A DNA stretch of 64,000 bases from Eubacteriales bacterium (GCA_031553225.1 JAVBLU010000007.1:4300-68299), one strand, 5' to 3'. Positions 19,452-25,357 are shown, counted from the first letter of the stretch. The notes: generated from the letters alone by a model not told the origin. Numbers and translations are program-made.

Positions 19452-20036
19452 TCAGGGTTCCCGCTCCATGGGGTTTAGGTTGAGGTTGAGGCGGCGGATG
19501 ATCTTTTCCAGGCGCCGGGCGCGCGCCTCCTCGGATTTTGCGTCAAAGTACAGGCCCGTGTAGGCGCGCTTGGCGGAGGGCGGCATGGCCATGAAGTGGG
19601 TAAACGCGGGCTCGGCCGGCTTGATCAGGTTCTCAAGCGCCATCACCTGGGCCTGTGAAATGGGCCCGGCTTCGGGGGCGTCCCACGCGCCGCTGCTTTT
19701 TGCTTCCTCTATTTTCGCACGGCCGCGGTCGGTCATCAGGCCCTGCGCTTCCAGTTCGGCAGCCAGCTTTTTGTTTTTGGGCGACCAGTTGCTGCCCTTT
19801 CTGCGCGGCGCAAAGTATTTCATGTACTTCGTTTGGTCAATGCTCTGCATTCGCCCGTCGATCCAGCCAAAGCACAGCGCCTCCTGCAGCGCCTCGCCGG
19901 CGCTCAGCGTTGCAGGGCCGGCCTGCTTGCCCAGCACCAGCCACACGCCGCCGCTCGCCGCGCCGTGCTCCGCAAGCCATGCCCGAAAATCAGCCCGGGT
20001 CGCAAACAGCATTTGCTCCAACCGGCTCGCCCCCAT
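19452..20036 (-). CDS. YdeI/OmpD-associated family protein
   Basis: FATRADFRAWL, EALCFGWIDG, F.PRRKGSNWS.KNK, GLMT..G and ARARRL; exact start uncertain (20036, 20021 or 20012). Confidence 0.9.
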   Translation of the reverse strand: MGASRLEQMLFATRADFRAWLAEHGAASGGVWLVLGKQAGPATLSAGEALQEALCFGWIDGRMQSIDQTKYMKYFAPRRKGSNWSPKNKKLAAELEAQGLMTDRGRAKIEEAKSSGAWDAPEAGPISQAQVMALENLIKPAEPAFTHFMAMPPSAKRAYTGLYFDAKSEEARARRLEKIIRRLNLNLNPMEREP

Positions 20037-20115
20037 TTGCTTCCAGTGTATCACCCGAGGCGGCCAAACACAATGGGCCGCCCGGTAGACCATGGCGCCG
20101 CCCCCACTTTTGCTC

Positions 20116-20144
20116 TTGACGGGAAGAGACCGGCGTGGTAATGT
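20116..20144 (+). promoter_or_regulatory. Probable sigmaA promoter of the leader/ABC operon
   Basis: TTGACG-17 nt-TAATGT. Confidence 0.55.
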
Positions 20145-20178
20145 AGGGATAATAAAATATGAAGGAGGTGGTGCGACG

Positions 20179-20319
20179 GTGAATATCAGGCTGACGGTGT
20201 CGGGCGGCCGCACATTCGTGAATATCGAATGCGTCGCGGGTTACACGTTCACATCCGGCGCGATGAGGGGGTATTCTGCCCAAAAATCGGTCGCGCCGCC
20301 CGACGCCAAGCCGTTTTAG
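20179..20319 (+). CDS. Putative 46-aa leader peptide (MNIRLTVSGGRTFVNIECVAGYTFTSGAMRGYSAQKSVAPPDAKPF)
   Basis: Strong RBS AAGGAGGTG ahead of a GTG start; lies between the promoter and a terminator upstream of the ABC genes. Confidence 0.6.
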   Translation: MNIRLTVSGGRTFVNIECVAGYTFTSGAMRGYSAQKSVAPPDAKPF

Positions 20320-20355
20320 GCGATCTTTGCATCGCCGTACGGGGATTGGACCAGG

Positions 20356-20388
20356 ACTGGCCGACCGTGTGTCGGCCGGTTTTTTGTT
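20356..20388 (+). terminator. Premature intrinsic terminator (attenuator) in the ABC operon leader
   Basis: actggccgac-cgtgt-gtcggccggt followed by tttttgtt, ~80 nt before the first ABC gene. Confidence 0.7.
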
Positions 20389-20465
20389 GCGAAAAAACAG
20401 CAGGTAAACCGGACGGCTCGCGGCGGTACATGGGCGGCGGCCGGGAAAAGCGAGGAAGGATCGAC

Positions 20466-21242
20466 ATGAACCGGTATTGGACGCACGGCCGCATGTGCGC
20501 GGCGCAGGCCTTCGACGGCGGCGTGTTCTATGTGTTCAGCGGCTACGCCCTGCGCGTTTTGCAGCCTGTGGTGCTCATGCTGCTGTGGCGGCAGCTTCTG
20601 TCCGGGTCGTCGCCGCCGCTGTCTCTGCGGGCGGTGCTCACCTATACGCTGTGGTCGTCGCTGCTGGCCCAGCAGCTCAACGTTCACACCACTGCCTGCG
20701 ACGATTTCTGGGACGGAAGCTTCGGCATGCGCTTCCTGCGTCCCGCGGGCGTTCTGTCGCAGGTGTTTGCCGAGACGGTCGGGCGGTGGGTTCCGGGGCT
20801 TTTGCTGTATACCCTGCCGGCTTTCGCTCTGGCGCTGCTCATCGGCATTCCGGCGGCTCCCGTAACGCCCGTGGCAGGGCTGCTCGGCGGGGCTTCCCTG
20901 CTGCTCTCCGTATCGCTTGGGTTCGCGGTGGACTTTTTGTTCATGTCGCTCTCGGTCAACTGGAAGAACGCCTCCTATCAGGCGGTCATCCTGCGCTCGG
21001 CCGTCATGAAGGTGTGCTCAGGCGCGGTCATCCCGTTTGCCGCGCTGCCCGGGGCCGTGGGCGCGGTGCTCTCCTGCCTTCCGTTTGGCGCGCTGGCGGG
21101 CGCTCCGCTGTCCATCTACGCGGGGCTGTCCGCCCCGCTGCAGCCCATCCTGCTGCAGGTTTTCTGGAACGCCGCGCTGTGGCCGCTGGCGCTTTATTGC
21201 GTGCGACGCAGCGAGGAAAAGCTGGTGAGTTTCGGTGGATAG
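20466..21242 (+). CDS. ABC-2 family exporter permease (DUF990/EvrB-like)
   Basis: Six TM-like segments, FWDGSFGMRFLRP motif, GAVIPF; partner of the next two genes. Confidence 0.85.
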   Translation: MNRYWTHGRMCAAQAFDGGVFYVFSGYALRVLQPVVLMLLWRQLLSGSSPPLSLRAVLTYTLWSSLLAQQLNVHTTACDDFWDGSFGMRFLRPAGVLSQVFAETVGRWVPGLLLYTLPAFALALLIGIPAAPVTPVAGLLGGASLLLSVSLGFAVDFLFMSLSVNWKNASYQAVILRSAVMKVCSGAVIPFAALPGAVGAVLSCLPFGALAGAPLSIYAGLSAPLQPILLQVFWNAALWPLALYCVRRSEEKLVSFGG

Positions 21243-22086
21243 GCTTTTGTGGATCGGCCGGCGCTACGGCCAGCTGATGGGCCTGAAAGCGCGCATGGAC
21301 CTTGCGTGGTACCTGCGCGACCGGCGCGTGGTGCTCATCTGCATGGGCACGGACGCCGTTTCCGCCGTGGCGTCGGTGATGGCGGTGTACTTTCTGGCCG
21401 AGCGCTTCGACGGGCTGTGCGGCCTTACGCGGCCGCAGGTGTTGTTTATGCTCGGGTTCGGGCTGCTCATCGAGGGACTGCGCATGGTGTTCTTTGGCAA
21501 CGACAACGCCAGCGCGCCCTCGCGGCGCTTCGGACGGGGCCAGGTGGACCACATGCTGATGCAGCCCGTGCCCGTTTGGCTGCAGCTGATCACCGACGGC
21601 TTTGCGCCCGTCACCAGCCTGGCCGTGTTCCTGTCGGGCGCGGCGTTTACCGCCTGGGCCATCCATCAGCTGGCCCTGCCGCTGAGCATCCTGTGGTGGG
21701 CGCGGTTTGCCGGGCAGCTTGTGAGCGCGCTGGGCGTGCTGATGGGCTTCACCTACCTCACGTCCGTACCGGCGTTCTACGCGCCCGTGGCCGCGGAGGA
21801 AATCTCCTCCACCGTTGGGAGCTTCTTCAGCTCGCTCAAGCCCTTCCCACTGGGCGGCCTGGGCGGGGGCGCGCGGTTTTTGCTCACGGTTTTGCTGCCC
21901 GTCGGTCTAACGGCCTGGTACCCCGCCAGCGCTCTGCTGACGCCCGCGCACCCGCTGCAGCTGTGGGCCGCGCCCGCCATGGCGCTGGCGCTCATCGCCG
22001 CGAGCGCATTCTTCCTACGAAAGGGGCTTGACCATTATGTCCGCGTCGGTTCGCCGCGCTACTCGCGCAGGGGATTTCGCAATTGA
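21235..22086 (+). CDS. ABC-2 family exporter permease (DUF990/EvrC-like)
   Basis: GQVDHMLMQP motif, multiple TM helices, YPASALL. Confidence 0.85.
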   Translation: MDRLLWIGRRYGQLMGLKARMDLAWYLRDRRVVLICMGTDAVSAVASVMAVYFLAERFDGLCGLTRPQVLFMLGFGLLIEGLRMVFFGNDNASAPSRRFGRGQVDHMLMQPVPVWLQLITDGFAPVTSLAVFLSGAAFTAWAIHQLALPLSILWWARFAGQLVSALGVLMGFTYLTSVPAFYAPVAAEEISSTVGSFFSSLKPFPLGGLGGGARFLLTVLLPVGLTAWYPASALLTPAHPLQLWAAPAMALALIAASAFFLRKGLDHYVRVGSPRYSRRGFRN

Positions 22087-22918
22087 ACTGTCGCACCTGA
22101 CCAAAACGTATGCGCAGTGGCAGCGCAGCTTTCGCTTGAAGGATTTGGGCCGCAGCCTTCTGCGGCCGCAGACCAGGGAAGTACACGCCCTGCAGGACGT
22201 GAGCCTCACCGTGCGGCGCGGCGAGTTTGTGGCCTACGCGGGCCCGAACGGCGCGGGCAAATCCACCACCATGAAGCTGCTCAGCGGCATGCTCGCCCCC
22301 ACGAGCGGGGACGCCTACGCACTTGGCCTGCACCCGCGAAAGGCGCGCATCCAGCTGATGAAGCGCGCGGGCGTGTTGTTTGGCCAGCGCTCGGAGCTGT
22401 GGTGGGACCACCCGGTGGCCATGAGCTTTGAGTGGAAGCGCACGGTGTGGGACATCCCGCAGCACACCTACGAGCGCATGCGCGCCATGGTATGCGAGCT
22501 GCTGGGCCTTGGCCCCCTTATGCAAACCTTTGCCCGGGAGTTGTCGCTGGGCCAGCGCATGCGCTGTGATCTGGGCCTTCTGTTGCTGCACGAGCCGGAG
22601 CTGCTTTTGCTGGACGAACCCACGCTTGGCCTGGACGTGCTCGCCAAGCAGCAGCTGATCGCCTTTTTGAAGCACCTCCACAGGGAGGACGGCGTCACCA
22701 TCCTCGTCACCTCGCACGACATGGACGACCTGCAGGAGATGGCGCAGCGCCTTATTCTCATATCCGGCGGACGCATCGCCTTTGACGGCACGTTTGACGC
22801 GCTGCGCGGCGCAGCGCCCGCGCCGCTCACCGTGGAGCAAACCGTAACGCGCGGCGCGCCCATCGAGCAGGTCATCGCCTCGCTGTACCAGCGCTGGGCC
22901 AGCGAAGCCGCCACGTAG
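22037..22918 (+). CDS. ABC exporter ATP-binding protein (EvrA/COG4586-like)
   Basis: GPNGAGKST Walker A, LSLGQRMR signature, LLLLDEPT and VTSHDM; FGQRSELWWD family motif. Confidence 0.92.
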   Translation: MSASVRRATRAGDFAIELSHLTKTYAQWQRSFRLKDLGRSLLRPQTREVHALQDVSLTVRRGEFVAYAGPNGAGKSTTMKLLSGMLAPTSGDAYALGLHPRKARIQLMKRAGVLFGQRSELWWDHPVAMSFEWKRTVWDIPQHTYERMRAMVCELLGLGPLMQTFARELSLGQRMRCDLGLLLLHEPELLLLDEPTLGLDVLAKQQLIAFLKHLHREDGVTILVTSHDMDDLQEMAQRLILISGGRIAFDGTFDALRGAAPAPLTVEQTVTRGAPIEQVIASLYQRWASEAAT

Positions 22919-23248: not shown

Positions 23249-25357
23249 CTATCCCCGCTCGGCGATGCGCGCGTTTGCGTGAATATGGCCGCCGCAGGAG
23301 CCTAAGATCCCGTCGATGACGGCGTTGGGCCCGATGTCGCCGTCCACGCGCCCAACGTTGCCGCGTACGCGCCCGTTGAAGCAGCCGCAGACGCGCTCGA
23401 CATTGCCGCCCACGCGGCCGTCCAGATCGCCTTTGATGACGCCCTTCACGTGACGGCCCACGTTGCCGCGCAGGGCGCCGCATACGTCGCCTTCCACATC
23501 GCCGCCCACGTTGCCGGTCAGATCGGCCTTCACGGATCCCCTCACGCTGCCGCCTACGTTGCCGCGCAGGCACCCGCCTATGTCGCCCTCCACGTTGCCG
23601 CCTACGCTGCCCAGCAGATCGCCCTTGACGCAGCCCTTGACGGAGCCGCCCATAGACCCGCTCATGATGCCGCCGATGTCGCCGTGTACGCTGCCGCCCA
23701 TTCGGCCTGCCATGTCGCCTCCGACGGATCCGCGCACATCGCCTCCAACCGCACCCACAATGCGGCCTTGCACGTTGCCCATAACCGACCCGGCCACCAT
23801 GCCCAGAAGGTCGCCGTCGATCTGCGGGAGATTGCCCGTTGTGTTGCCGGAGAAATGGCCGCCATCGTAGCGCGCGTTGGGCGTGTTGTGCAGGTGTGGG
23901 CCGCCGACGGCGCCGTGGAAGGGGAAACCTTCGCCCAGGCTGATGCGGATGTCCGGATGGACGTGCGCGTGGACCGGCCCGTGGCGGCGGCCCTCGCCTT
24001 CACGGCCGAAGAGCTCCACGCCCTCCGGGAACCCGCCGCCAATTTTGGCGCTGCGGTGAATGCGCCCTTCGCAGACTGCAAGCTTGCCATCAATAGTCGC
24101 CTCCGGTCCGATGTCGCCGCATACGCAGCCTACGTTTCCTTTTATTTTGCCGTTCAGGCACCCGCCGATGCGGGACACGTCGCTCTCTACAACGCCGTTC
24201 ACGTCGCCGTCGATCTCACCTGACACGCATTTCACGCGGCCGTTTACATCGCCTTCGATGCGGCCCTTCACCGTACCGCTCACAACGCCGTTCAGCTCGC
24301 CCTGTATGCTGCCGGTCACGTCGCCGCTCACCCGGCCGTTCAGATCGCCCTCGACGTTCCCTTCCACCGATCCGCCCACGATGCCGTTCAGATCACCCAT
24401 CACGTTGCCCTGAACCGCCAGACCCACCTTGCCGTTCAGGTCGCCGTGCAGGCTGCCCTTGAGCTCCTGAGCGACGATGCCGTTCAAGTCGCCGCAGACC
24501 TTGCCTTCCAGATAACCGCCGACTTTGCCGTTCAGGTCGCCGCAAACGTCGCCCTTCATGCAGCCGCCGATCGTGCCGTTTAGATCGCCGAGCACGTTGC
24601 CTTCCATATGGCCGGCGATTTTGCCGTTCATATCGGCGGAAACGTCGCCCTTCATATTGCCCAGAACCTGGCCGTCCAGATCGCCGGCTGCGTTGCCGTT
24701 CAGGTCGCCCTGCACAACCCCGTCGAAGCTTTCGGGCAGATCGCCTTGCATATCGCCGGAAATGAGATTCCCTTTGCGTTCGGCGCGCTCTTGCTGGCGC
24801 ATGCCGTGGCGCGCATGGCGCATGGCTCTGCCCGCTTCGCGTGCCGCGTCGCGGCCGATACGGGCGGCCTCGTGGGCGGCTCGCGCGGCCTCGCGGCCCA
24901 TCTCGTGCATGCTCTGATGGAAGTCCTGGCGGAAGTCCTCTTCCTCCCGCTCCTCACTCCGCACCGGCGGCACCGGCGGAACGGGAGGTACCGGCGGGAC
25001 CGGAGGCACGGGCGGGACCGGAGGCACGGGCGGAGAGGGCGGTGCGCTCGGTTCGGCCTGCCCGGGCGCGTCCTTGCGCTGCTGAAAGCCCCGCTTCATG
25101 TTTTGGGCCAGATCGCGGGCCATATCGCCCACATCGCGGCCAAAGCGCCCCATGTCGCGTCCGAACTTGTCCATATCCACGTAGAAGCCGGAACCGCGCT
25201 TCTTCTCGTTCTCCGGCCAGGGTTTTTTCGCGTCGGCCTGCTCCCATGCGGCGTCCTCGGGCTTGCCCTGCATGGCGGAGATCAGCTTATCCGCTTCCTC
25301 GGCGGAGAGGCGGCCCGCCTGCACTTCCTCCAGTATCTTTTTTAGCTGCTCATTCAT
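23249..25357 (-). CDS. 702-aa repeat protein: SHOCT/YvlB-like N-terminus, (PPV)8 linker, two Gly-rich tetrapeptide-repeat domains
   Basis: MNEQLKKILEEVQAGRLSAEEADKLISAM start; RBS GGAGGAGAAGG; ATG overlaps the DUF2089 stop; G-x-[VILM]-x repeats at 24032-24772 and 23249-23863. Confidence 0.85.
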   Translation of the reverse strand: MNEQLKKILEEVQAGRLSAEEADKLISAMQGKPEDAAWEQADAKKPWPENEKKRGSGFYVDMDKFGRDMGRFGRDVGDMARDLAQNMKRGFQQRKDAPGQAEPSAPPSPPVPPVPPVPPVPPVPPVPPVPPVRSEEREEEDFRQDFHQSMHEMGREAARAAHEAARIGRDAAREAGRAMRHARHGMRQQERAERKGNLISGDMQGDLPESFDGVVQGDLNGNAAGDLDGQVLGNMKGDVSADMNGKIAGHMEGNVLGDLNGTIGGCMKGDVCGDLNGKVGGYLEGKVCGDLNGIVAQELKGSLHGDLNGKVGLAVQGNVMGDLNGIVGGSVEGNVEGDLNGRVSGDVTGSIQGELNGVVSGTVKGRIEGDVNGRVKCVSGEIDGDVNGVVESDVSRIGGCLNGKIKGNVGCVCGDIGPEATIDGKLAVCEGRIHRSAKIGGGFPEGVELFGREGEGRRHGPVHAHVHPDIRISLGEGFPFHGAVGGPHLHNTPNARYDGGHFSGNTTGNLPQIDGDLLGMVAGSVMGNVQGRIVGAVGGDVRGSVGGDMAGRMGGSVHGDIGGIMSGSMGGSVKGCVKGDLLGSVGGNVEGDIGGCLRGNVGGSVRGSVKADLTGNVGGDVEGDVCGALRGNVGRHVKGVIKGDLDGRVGGNVERVCGCFNGRVRGNVGRVDGDIGPNAVIDGILGSCGGHIHANARIAERG
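24962..25033 (-). repeat. Eight tandem 9-bp units encoding (Pro-Pro-Val)8
   Basis: Units caccggcgg, caccggcgg, aacgggagg, taccggcgg, gaccggagg, cacgggcgg, gaccggagg, cacgggcgg, with synonymous variation. Confidence 0.95.

Follow-up and report, generated by a model that had tools for sequence, protein, structure and literature searches.

In the window (the whole stretch of 64,000 nucleotides that was analysed, from an Eubacteriales bacterium of an invertebrate gut metagenome; GCA_031553225.1 JAVBLU010000007.1:4300-68299), an operon of three genes for an ABC-2 exporter is preceded by a segment, 20116-20465, that holds a promoter, a strong ribosome-binding site, an open reading frame (ORF) of 46 codons and an intrinsic terminator, which raises the question of what a small ORF and a terminator are doing between a promoter and exporter genes. 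All of these elements, the ABC genes included, had been listed in a first-pass annotation made from the sequence alone, and reading the sequence from 19800 to 20700 and listing its ORFs located every one of them in the place assigned to it. The same annotation took the segment for a translated leader whose terminator gates an exporter of the DUF990/EVE (ethyl viologen exporter) type, a general reading that is strongly backed by the comparative data presented below, whereas the specific antiterminator that it proposed does not rise above chance. The segment is best explained as a cis-acting translated leader, a ribosome-dependent transcription attenuator that gates the three exporter genes, and we put the probability of this reading at about 0.62.

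Leader family and its distribution

Judged by comparison with other loci, the window leader belongs to a family of clostridial mRNA leaders that are translated, highly structured and conserved and had not been described before; for this family a comparative set of 21 leaders (the window and 20 more, from about nine lineages) was assembled. A DNA search of 60 relatives with the leader returned short chance matches only, and a word-based protein search with the window peptide alone recovered only the peptide itself, so that the family surfaced only once the orthologous operons had been located. Orthologues of the first permease with ~39% identity were found in metagenome-assembled genomes (L009, L010 and L011) and on metagenome contigs (L015, L016 and L017), and upstream of all of these permeases the same series of elements is present, namely a promoter, GAAAGGTGGTGA, an ORF of 51-67 codons, GGG..GCCCTTTT, a terminator, and the Shine-Dalgarno sequence and start codon of the permease. 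A profile of six leader peptides matched 52 clusters at E<1e-3 among 1.84 billion representative proteins, mostly of 66-67 amino acids, with the profile-search consensus MNIsvFaSgGnVFvNCECIkGyAFknA..R.KSALLPVICA.F..LRDNCAHF.R.ECLLPH. A word search with the enlarged alignment contributed named members, among them one in a cultured organism, Sgly_2657 of Syntrophobotulus glycolicus DSM 8271, which exemplifies how gene callers label the leader ORF, as a hypothetical protein. The profile also matched a protein of 1370 amino acids (P0008) in 17 separate stretches (E=1.7e-14), which is probably a repetitive or low-complexity artefact.

Fourteen loci were fetched via the peptide (8 clusters, two of the loci being redundant copies), and in 13 of them the leader ORF lies 75-120 nt upstream of the exporter operon, which, as far as the contigs reach, encodes a permease of ~255 amino acids, a PF06182 permease of ~282 amino acids and an ATPase of ~338 amino acids. 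PF06182 is the DUF990 family. A search for the peptide upstream of DUF990 operons had been suggested as a check in the first-pass annotation, and the leader is indeed conserved together with the operon. The genes that flank leader and operon vary at every locus. At L033:3859-5374 the leader is intact, the permease genes are split into pieces of 85 and 208 amino acids and a TnpW-like gene lies just upstream; by these signs, this is a decaying copy of the leader/operon module. The Syntrophobotulus glycolicus locus (L031:1-3812) places leader and operon beside a phage-type integrase, HicAB and Gp49/HTH toxin-antitoxin-like pairs, neighbours which hint that mobile or island regions can harbour the module. 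One orthologous ABC-2 operon (L018:1050-1520; 41% identity for the first permease) has no leader, and its preceding gene ends a few bases before the permease.

The family is rare among reference genomes, since the pattern AAGGTGGTGRRAGGN{0,2}RTGAA had no match in 400 genomes of the class, and a peptide-profile search of 400 genomes of the window's order recovered only the window's own genome and one other genus, three genomes of which carry a closer version of the leader. In the window's own genome leader and operon are each present in a single copy. The sources of the members are gut, biogas and sediment metagenomes, as well as the cultured Syntrophobotulus glycolicus.

Translation, structure and selection in the leader

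In all 21 leaders a small promoter-proximal ORF has its own Shine-Dalgarno sequence and start codon, with a promoter at a fixed distance. The -35 box is located at -60 to -63 from the start codon in 19 of the 21, the window included, and a strict TGnTAnnnT extended -10 element at -40 to -43 in 12, an arrangement that the window promoter fits exactly. The family consensus of the Shine-Dalgarno sequence is GAAAGGUGGUGAGAGG, in which the G/A columns are invariant, and the Shine-Dalgarno block matches the anti-Shine-Dalgarno sequence at 11 of 12 positions. The start codon occupies one alignment column and is ATG or GTG in every leader, with exchanges within clades, such that L023 has ATG where its relatives have GTG, while L033 and the window have GTG. 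Within clade A, whose members are closely related, the only indels measure 6 and 3 nt in the ORF and 2, 2 and 2 nt after its stop codon. The other two frames contain 58 and 57 stop codons within the ORF spans, and a shuffled ORF stays open with a probability of 0.02-0.30 per sequence. As judged by this indirect evidence of selection on the frame, the leader ORF, which ranges from 46 codons in the window to 73 codons (51-73 in the other 20 leaders), is maintained as an open frame and is translated.

Two further short reading frames overlap the leader start. In clade A and L015 (L009:256-262; L010, L015, L019-L021) an ATG-TGA “start-stop” after the Shine-Dalgarno sequence shares bases with the GTG that opens the long frame (GGAUGUGAAG), and in L023 the same site reads GGAUAUGAAG, so that the start-stop is lost and the GTG has become ATG. 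In the window, a mini-ORF of seven codons (20159-20182; ATG AAG GAG GTG GTG CGA CGG TGA) in another frame overlaps both the Shine-Dalgarno sequence and the leader start, and shows no sign of conservation.

The alternative structure that recurs throughout the family is not the antiterminator of the first-pass annotation but a helix which that annotation had missed. In all folds the Shine-Dalgarno/start region pairs with a segment just upstream of the terminator, and this helix, termed P1, is present in all 21 leaders at -20 to -31 kcal/mol, with its 5' strand at ~-16 to +6 around the start codon (see Table 1 for the strands in the window). The two strands change in step across lineages (GGUGAGAGGUAU/AUGCCUCUUGCC, GGUGGGAGGC/GCCUCCUGCC, GUGAAAGG/CCUUUCAC and, in the window, GGUGGUGCGA/UUGCAUCGCC), and cognate strands pair better than non-cognate ones in nine of nine lineages. 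In the consensus structure of eight leaders of the 66-codon type, 92% of the cells are paired, compared with 36-50% when the partners are slid, and nine pairs have changed on both sides, compared with 3.6 +/- 1.6 in shuffles (2 of 500 as high). The folds of the leaders are also more stable than those of shuffles (z -1.9 to -3.1).

P1 encloses the hairpins H1 and H3. H1 also appears as helix 2 of the clade B consensus, with 95% of its cells paired, and compared with clade B a U-A pair is exchanged for C-G in the window. Counted from the first base of the start codon, the final C of H3 is reached at 103 nt in 14 leaders, among them the window, and at 100 or 106 nt in the rest; the hairpin is followed by AAAAA in the window, as opposed to UUUU in 17 others. 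In 20 of the 21 leaders the P1 3' strand lies inside the ORF, with the stop codon a few codons past it, so that a terminating ribosome would sit on this strand. The terminator follows the ORF at the same place in all 21 leaders (-13 to -25 kcal/mol) and thus lies between the leader ORF and the structural genes, where most members leave no space for a second promoter. In clades A and B its end is ~25-35 nt away from the permease start, which leaves no room for a promoter, so that the operon can be transcribed there only through read-through; in the window, a consensus scan of 20388-20466 found no promoter-like site.

Selection along the ORF is of two kinds. In the clades other than A, with the window included, the entropy of codons 2-27 by codon position is 22.7/21.1/36.7 (permutation p<5e-5), and the conserved columns use all three Ile codons and all four Val codons; the first ~26 residues are thus selected as a peptide outside clade A. 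From codon 28 to 37 there is no codon periodicity (p=0.91), and likewise none over codons 28-66 of clade B (p=0.32). The residue preferences of this downstream part are nucleotide patterns, such that R/W/G stand for NGG and S/C/Y/F for UNY, while GCC CUU UU is invariant. The pattern indicates that the leader after codon 27, including the sequence past the stop codon, is selected as RNA structure. Within clade A, the divergence per site by codon position is 0.127/0.108/0.126 for the leader ORF (synonymous fraction 0.19) and 0.101/0.032/0.339 for the adjacent permease gene (synonymous fraction 0.74). Since the leader diverges equally at the three positions, its amino-acid sequence is not under selection in this clade. 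Even at its third positions the rate of change is about a third of that at the synonymous sites of the permease next door, which marks a constraint on the RNA. AlphaFold2 (AF2), supplied with the family alignment, is confident of a β-hairpin of residues 2-17 only (mean pLDDT 65.7, pTM 0.30), so that the leader product is not a folded small protein; it is the N-terminal third that matters as a peptide.

Such a constraint on nucleotides could also be read as that of an RNA which acts like a riboswitch or binds a protein. The ligand, a small molecule or a protein, would then be bound by the elements that P1 closes off (H1, the hairpin with the invariant GGG and CCC, and additional helices in leaders of the 66-codon type) and would stabilise or open P1 and thereby set the terminator, with translation in a secondary role, e.g. 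clearing or resetting the RNA. Indeed, the constraint is uniform over the three codon positions from codon 28 to the end and throughout clade A, the invariant nucleotides are fixed in their spacing, the folds exceed shuffles in stability, and a closing helix followed by a terminator is the typical architecture of riboswitches. [quoted passage not shown] The Rfam covariance models matched neither the window (E<=10) nor seven family loci (E<=0.1), and identity with a T-box or a known riboswitch was rejected on this ground. Moreover, a switch that is closed by its ligand into the OFF state would be odd for an exporter, and a ligand-binding leader of this kind is regarded as unlikely.

The selection on the N-terminal ~26 residues, together with the β-hairpin predicted with confidence for residues 2-17, is what would be expected if the product were instead a functional micropeptide, be it an accessory subunit, a substrate, a signal or a bacteriocin-like peptide for which the ABC-2 system is the immunity or export partner, with a leaky terminator setting the ratio of peptide to transporter. 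Gene callers do annotate the ORF as a hypothetical protein (Sgly_2657), and in lantibiotic loci a structural gene is followed by a partial terminator and then by ABC-2 genes, a likeness that counts for this explanation. On the other hand, in clade A it is the nucleotides that are conserved, the peptide itself evolving neutrally (synonymous fraction 0.19), the C-terminal two thirds are devoid of coding periodicity, and lengths and C-termini vary widely, with the window form cut to 46 amino acids. The peptide carries neither a signal nor a GG-leader motif, genes for modification or processing are absent from the vicinity, the flanks differ at every locus, and the ORF's own Shine-Dalgarno sequence is sequestered by a helix of 10-15 bp. 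The model has a pTM of 0.30, and searches with the peptide family against Pfam, NCBIfam and PDB found no relatives. The specific idea of a bacteriocin or ribosomally synthesized and post-translationally modified peptide (RiPP) was rejected because of the missing processing genes and the neutral evolution in clade A, and the micropeptide explanation as a whole carries as little weight as the ligand-binding one. A coincidence confined to the window, i.e. a chance ORF and chance complementarities in GC-rich DNA beside an ordinary terminator, is most improbable, for although P1 and the duplex of the first-pass annotation are not above shuffles in the window and an open frame of 46 codons has a shuffle probability of ~0.2, twenty homologous leaders have the same parts in the same order and spacing before the same operon.

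Proposed attenuation and the candidate antiterminators

The findings above fit a ribosome-dependent attenuator of four segments, of which segment 1 would be the Shine-Dalgarno/start region, segment 2 the P1 3' strand and its surroundings, and segments 3 and 4 the arms of the terminator. On an RNA without a ribosome, 1 would pair with 2 (P1) and 3 with 4, so that transcription stops. A ribosome that has reached the end of the ORF would cover segment 2, which in most members overlaps the complement of the terminator 5' arm, so that the terminator would form as well and the default state would be OFF. If ribosomes were held near the start, or queued behind a ribosome whose tunnel holds the conserved peptide and which is arrested in the region of codons 28-36, segment 1 would be masked, and segment 2 (segment X in the window) could capture a terminator arm before the terminator is completed, resulting in read-through. 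Either a translation inhibitor or the substrate of the exporter could serve as the signal for slowing the ribosome.

For the last step several candidate pairings are available. The first-pass annotation had proposed that 20282-93 pairs with 20373-84, and this duplex does exist (12 bp, -14.0 kcal/mol, or -18.9 when extended), but it is not above shuffles; the CGGUCG/CGACCG duplex, proposed as a second option with the 5' arm, likewise exists (-8.6 kcal/mol), but the partners of the 5' arm are not above shuffles either. The best partner of the terminator 3' arm reaches -19.2 kcal/mol, compared with -17.7 +/- 2.2 for dinucleotide-shuffled upstream sequence (22% of the shuffles are as good), and that of the 5' arm -19.4 kcal/mol, compared with -18.4 (32% as good), while at least four upstream segments pair with the terminator arms at about -18.6 to -18.9 kcal/mol. 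Since shuffled sequence partners the arms equally well, the window alone cannot establish any particular alternative structure. Segment X, which contains the stretch proposed in the first-pass annotation, is the best partner of either arm in the window, at -18.6 kcal/mol with the 5' arm and -18.9 kcal/mol with the 3' arm and U-tract. Covariation of X with the terminator, the check suggested for it, was not borne out across the family: a preference for the own terminator is seen in only five of nine lineages and clearly in three, being clear in the window and clade A and weak in clade B, and the X homologues of L011, L015, L037 and L038 lack such a preference for the 3' arm. The pairing was therefore rejected as a family-wide covarying interaction. 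The 5' side of H3 showed no cognate preference for the terminator 5' arm.

A second candidate involves P1 itself. The sequence UUGAAUGCC, which overlaps the P1 3' strand, is complementary to the 5' arm and loop of the terminator, GG(G)UAUUCAA, in clade B, L037, L038 and L016, so that UUGAAUGCC/GGGUAUUCAA forms a candidate antiterminator helix, and in some members the pairing of UUGAAUGCC is the predicted minimum-energy structure as long as the terminator 3' arm has not been transcribed. Similar overlaps are found in clade A, L011 and L015.

A number of observations weigh against attenuation by the ribosome. In the window taken alone neither P1 nor the 12-bp duplex is better than in shuffles, and the window is the exception among the 21 leaders in that its ORF ends 8 nt before the P1 3' strand. 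The strands of the UUGAAUGCC helix are conserved and do not covary, two members have mismatches in it, and no clear complementarity between the P1 3' strand and the terminator is seen in the window or clade C. Only 6 of the 21 leaders were recovered independently of the ORF and the rest mostly via the ORF, so that the finding of an always open ORF carries an ascertainment bias. No stall motif or regulatory codon run was identified in the leader, the RNA runs of the window's metagenome study did not hold the locus, and runs with L011 have contigs of flat depth. According to the first-pass annotation, a ribosome stalled early in the leader would free the antiterminator. In a scan in which ribosomes mask the RNA at equilibrium, the terminator is more than 90% formed at any position of a single ribosome, so that any antitermination would have to be kinetic. 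It is only with a masked queue of ribosomes from the start codon that the terminator falls, e.g. to 0.34 in the window (P-site of the lead ribosome at codon 34) and, for codons 25-28 of L009, to 0.00-0.08. Because no antitermination was predicted for single ribosomes, the scan was judged to be of no use as a test of the mechanism.

A narrower version of the attenuator reading, which we offer tentatively and consider possible but doubtful, is that the leader belongs to a class of attenuators that sense the occupancy of their own initiation site, with the nascent β-hairpin (residues ~2-27) arresting the lead ribosome at H3. Either a drug or the exporter's substrate may be needed for the arrest, and the queue behind it would cover the start site, while the downstream strand would block the terminator. 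The distance of 100-106 nt between start codon and H3 corresponds to about three ribosome footprints, which fits the queue, and equally a required peptide length or a pause site. If this occupancy version holds, a single short ORF would hold two codes, one for a peptide in its first third and one for RNA structure in the remainder.

The window locus and its relation to known systems

The features of the leader and of the operon are listed in Table 1.

Table 1. Coordinates of leader and operon features in the window
Feature	Position	Strand	Details
Promoter	20116..20144	+	-35 TTGACG 20116-21; 17-nt spacer; extended -10 TGgTAATGT 20136-44; read from the sequence
Shine-Dalgarno block	20162..20176	+	GAAGGAGGUGGUG; core GAAGGAGGTGGTG at 20162-74; P1 5' strand within and just after it
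P1 5' strand	20167..20176	+	GGUGGUGCGA
Leader ORF	20179..20319	+	GTG start; TAG 20317-19; 46 codons; peptide MNIRLTVSGGRTFVNIECVAGYTFTSGAMRGYSAQKSVAPPDAKPF
Codons 2-27, part selected as peptide	20182..20259	+	family motif V-F-x-N-C-E-C-I-K-G-Y-A-F
Hairpin H1	20213..20231	+	CAUUCG, loop UGAAUAU, CGAAUG; inside P1
Hairpin H3	20267..20281	+	GGG and CCC invariant in 21/21 leaders; inside P1
Segment X	20282..20300	+	contains AAAAAUCGGUCG of the first-pass annotation; candidate antiterminator; can pair with either terminator arm
P1 3' strand	20327..20336	+	UUGCAUCGCC; 8 nt past the window stop codon
Intrinsic terminator	20353..20385	+	stem 20353-20383, core CUGGCCGAC/GUCGGCCGG; loop CGUGU; U6 (T6 20380-85)
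ABC-2 permease 1	20466..21242	+	258 aa; PF06182 1.3e-5 (weak)
ABC-2 permease 2	21235..22086	+	283 aa; PF06182 1.2e-22
ABC ATPase	22028..22918	+	296 aa; PF00005 4.6e-22

The transcript is predicted to start at about 20150-53. A consensus scanner did not call the promoter, since its -10 hexamer has only three of six consensus matches, nor did it call the terminator, which is GC-rich (-19.8 to -20.3 kcal/mol) and was probably missed since its stem can extend into its own T-run. The GC content of the window leader is 59%. Apart from the TAG, the leader frame is open for 96 codons (20179-20469) up to a TGA that overlaps the permease start (ACATGAAC). The window ORF is the shortest of the family and, unlike all the others, does not reach the P1 3' strand, so that the TAG may have truncated it recently.

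The exporter consists of two PF06182 membrane subunits and one ABC ATPase encoded in a single operon, as do those of the related loci, and the ATPase had only generic ABC ATPase matches in NCBIfam, all of them below the cut-offs. In the TCDB, DUF990 is the EVE (EvrABC) family 3.A.1.141 (PMC5417439), which makes “EvrABC-type”, the label given in the first-pass annotation, a fair one. The gene order at the window locus is permease, permease, ATPase, which differs from EvrABC, and no leader of the present kind is known for EvrABC. Upstream, a protein of the YdeI/OmdA (“bacteriocin-protection”) family is encoded on the minus strand (19452-20087), divergent from the leader promoter, and is not conserved beside other family members. 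Downstream, and convergent to the operon, lies the gene for a protein of 702 amino acids (23249-25357, minus strand) with a SHOCT-like N-terminus, a (PPV)n run and long Gly-x-x-x repeats.

Among the known regulatory leaders, the arrest peptides ErmCL/ErmBL, MsrDL, TnaC, SpeFL and SecM are comparable in that the conserved residues ~12-25 would occupy the exit tunnel when the ribosome is at the invariant hairpin (codons 30-35), and in that downstream genes would be controlled via refolding of the mRNA. However, the known arrest motifs are not present in the window family, and in most of these systems the ORF is a good deal shorter, or the target of control is translation or Rho and not an intrinsic terminator. 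The trp, his and pheL attenuators share the four-segment logic (1:2, 2:3, 3:4), a stop codon placed so that the terminating ribosome covers segment 2, and termination of the untranslated leader through formation of 1:2 and 3:4. By contrast, the window family is without regulatory codon runs, its segment 1 is the initiation region, its ORF is three to five times longer with a structured domain of ~170 nt between segments 1 and 2, and the genes encode an exporter.

The family is a natural system in which selection at the peptide level and at the RNA level is separated along one ORF, and it offers a design, open to testing, whose sensor strand would be the ribosome-binding site of the leader itself. 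It would also open a route to the inducer of the exporter, and hence to its substrate, through reporter screens, add a family to the catalogues of RNAs and leader peptides, and allow better annotation of at least ~50 clusters of “hypothetical 66-aa proteins”.

To our knowledge, a single well-studied precedent for the control of an ABC exporter by leader-peptide attenuation is available, the bmrBCD operon. In Bacillus subtilis, bmrB (yheJ) is a translated leader ORF of 162 nt with a terminator and a predicted antiterminator and anti-antiterminator, and bmrCD is reached by read-through only when the leader is translated, a read-through that antibiotics targeting the ribosome induce (Reilman et al., 2014; PMC4191407). 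As in the window family, a small translated ORF lies directly upstream of the ABC exporter genes and an intrinsic terminator is involved. However, the bmrB terminator lies inside the ORF, whereas that of the window family is found 9-53 nt past the stop codon in all 21 leaders; the candidate anti-antiterminator of the window family, P1, has the leader's own Shine-Dalgarno/start region as a strand, its exporter is a three-gene ABC-2 system (DUF990/EVE) and not a heterodimer of the BmrCD type, and its peptide is partly conserved. The matches of the peptide profile among the 1.84 billion representatives are mostly of 45-80 amino acids and consensus-like, with no Bacillus bmrB-type protein recognised among them, BmrB itself not having been compared directly. 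With no detectable homology, a terminator past the ORF, a different candidate anti-antiterminator, another exporter class and a partly conserved peptide, the window family resembles bmrB-bmrCD in outline and is not a member of the BmrB type. It would thus represent a second, unrelated and much more elaborate family of such leaders, spread across Clostridia and placed before an exporter of the DUF990/EVE type.

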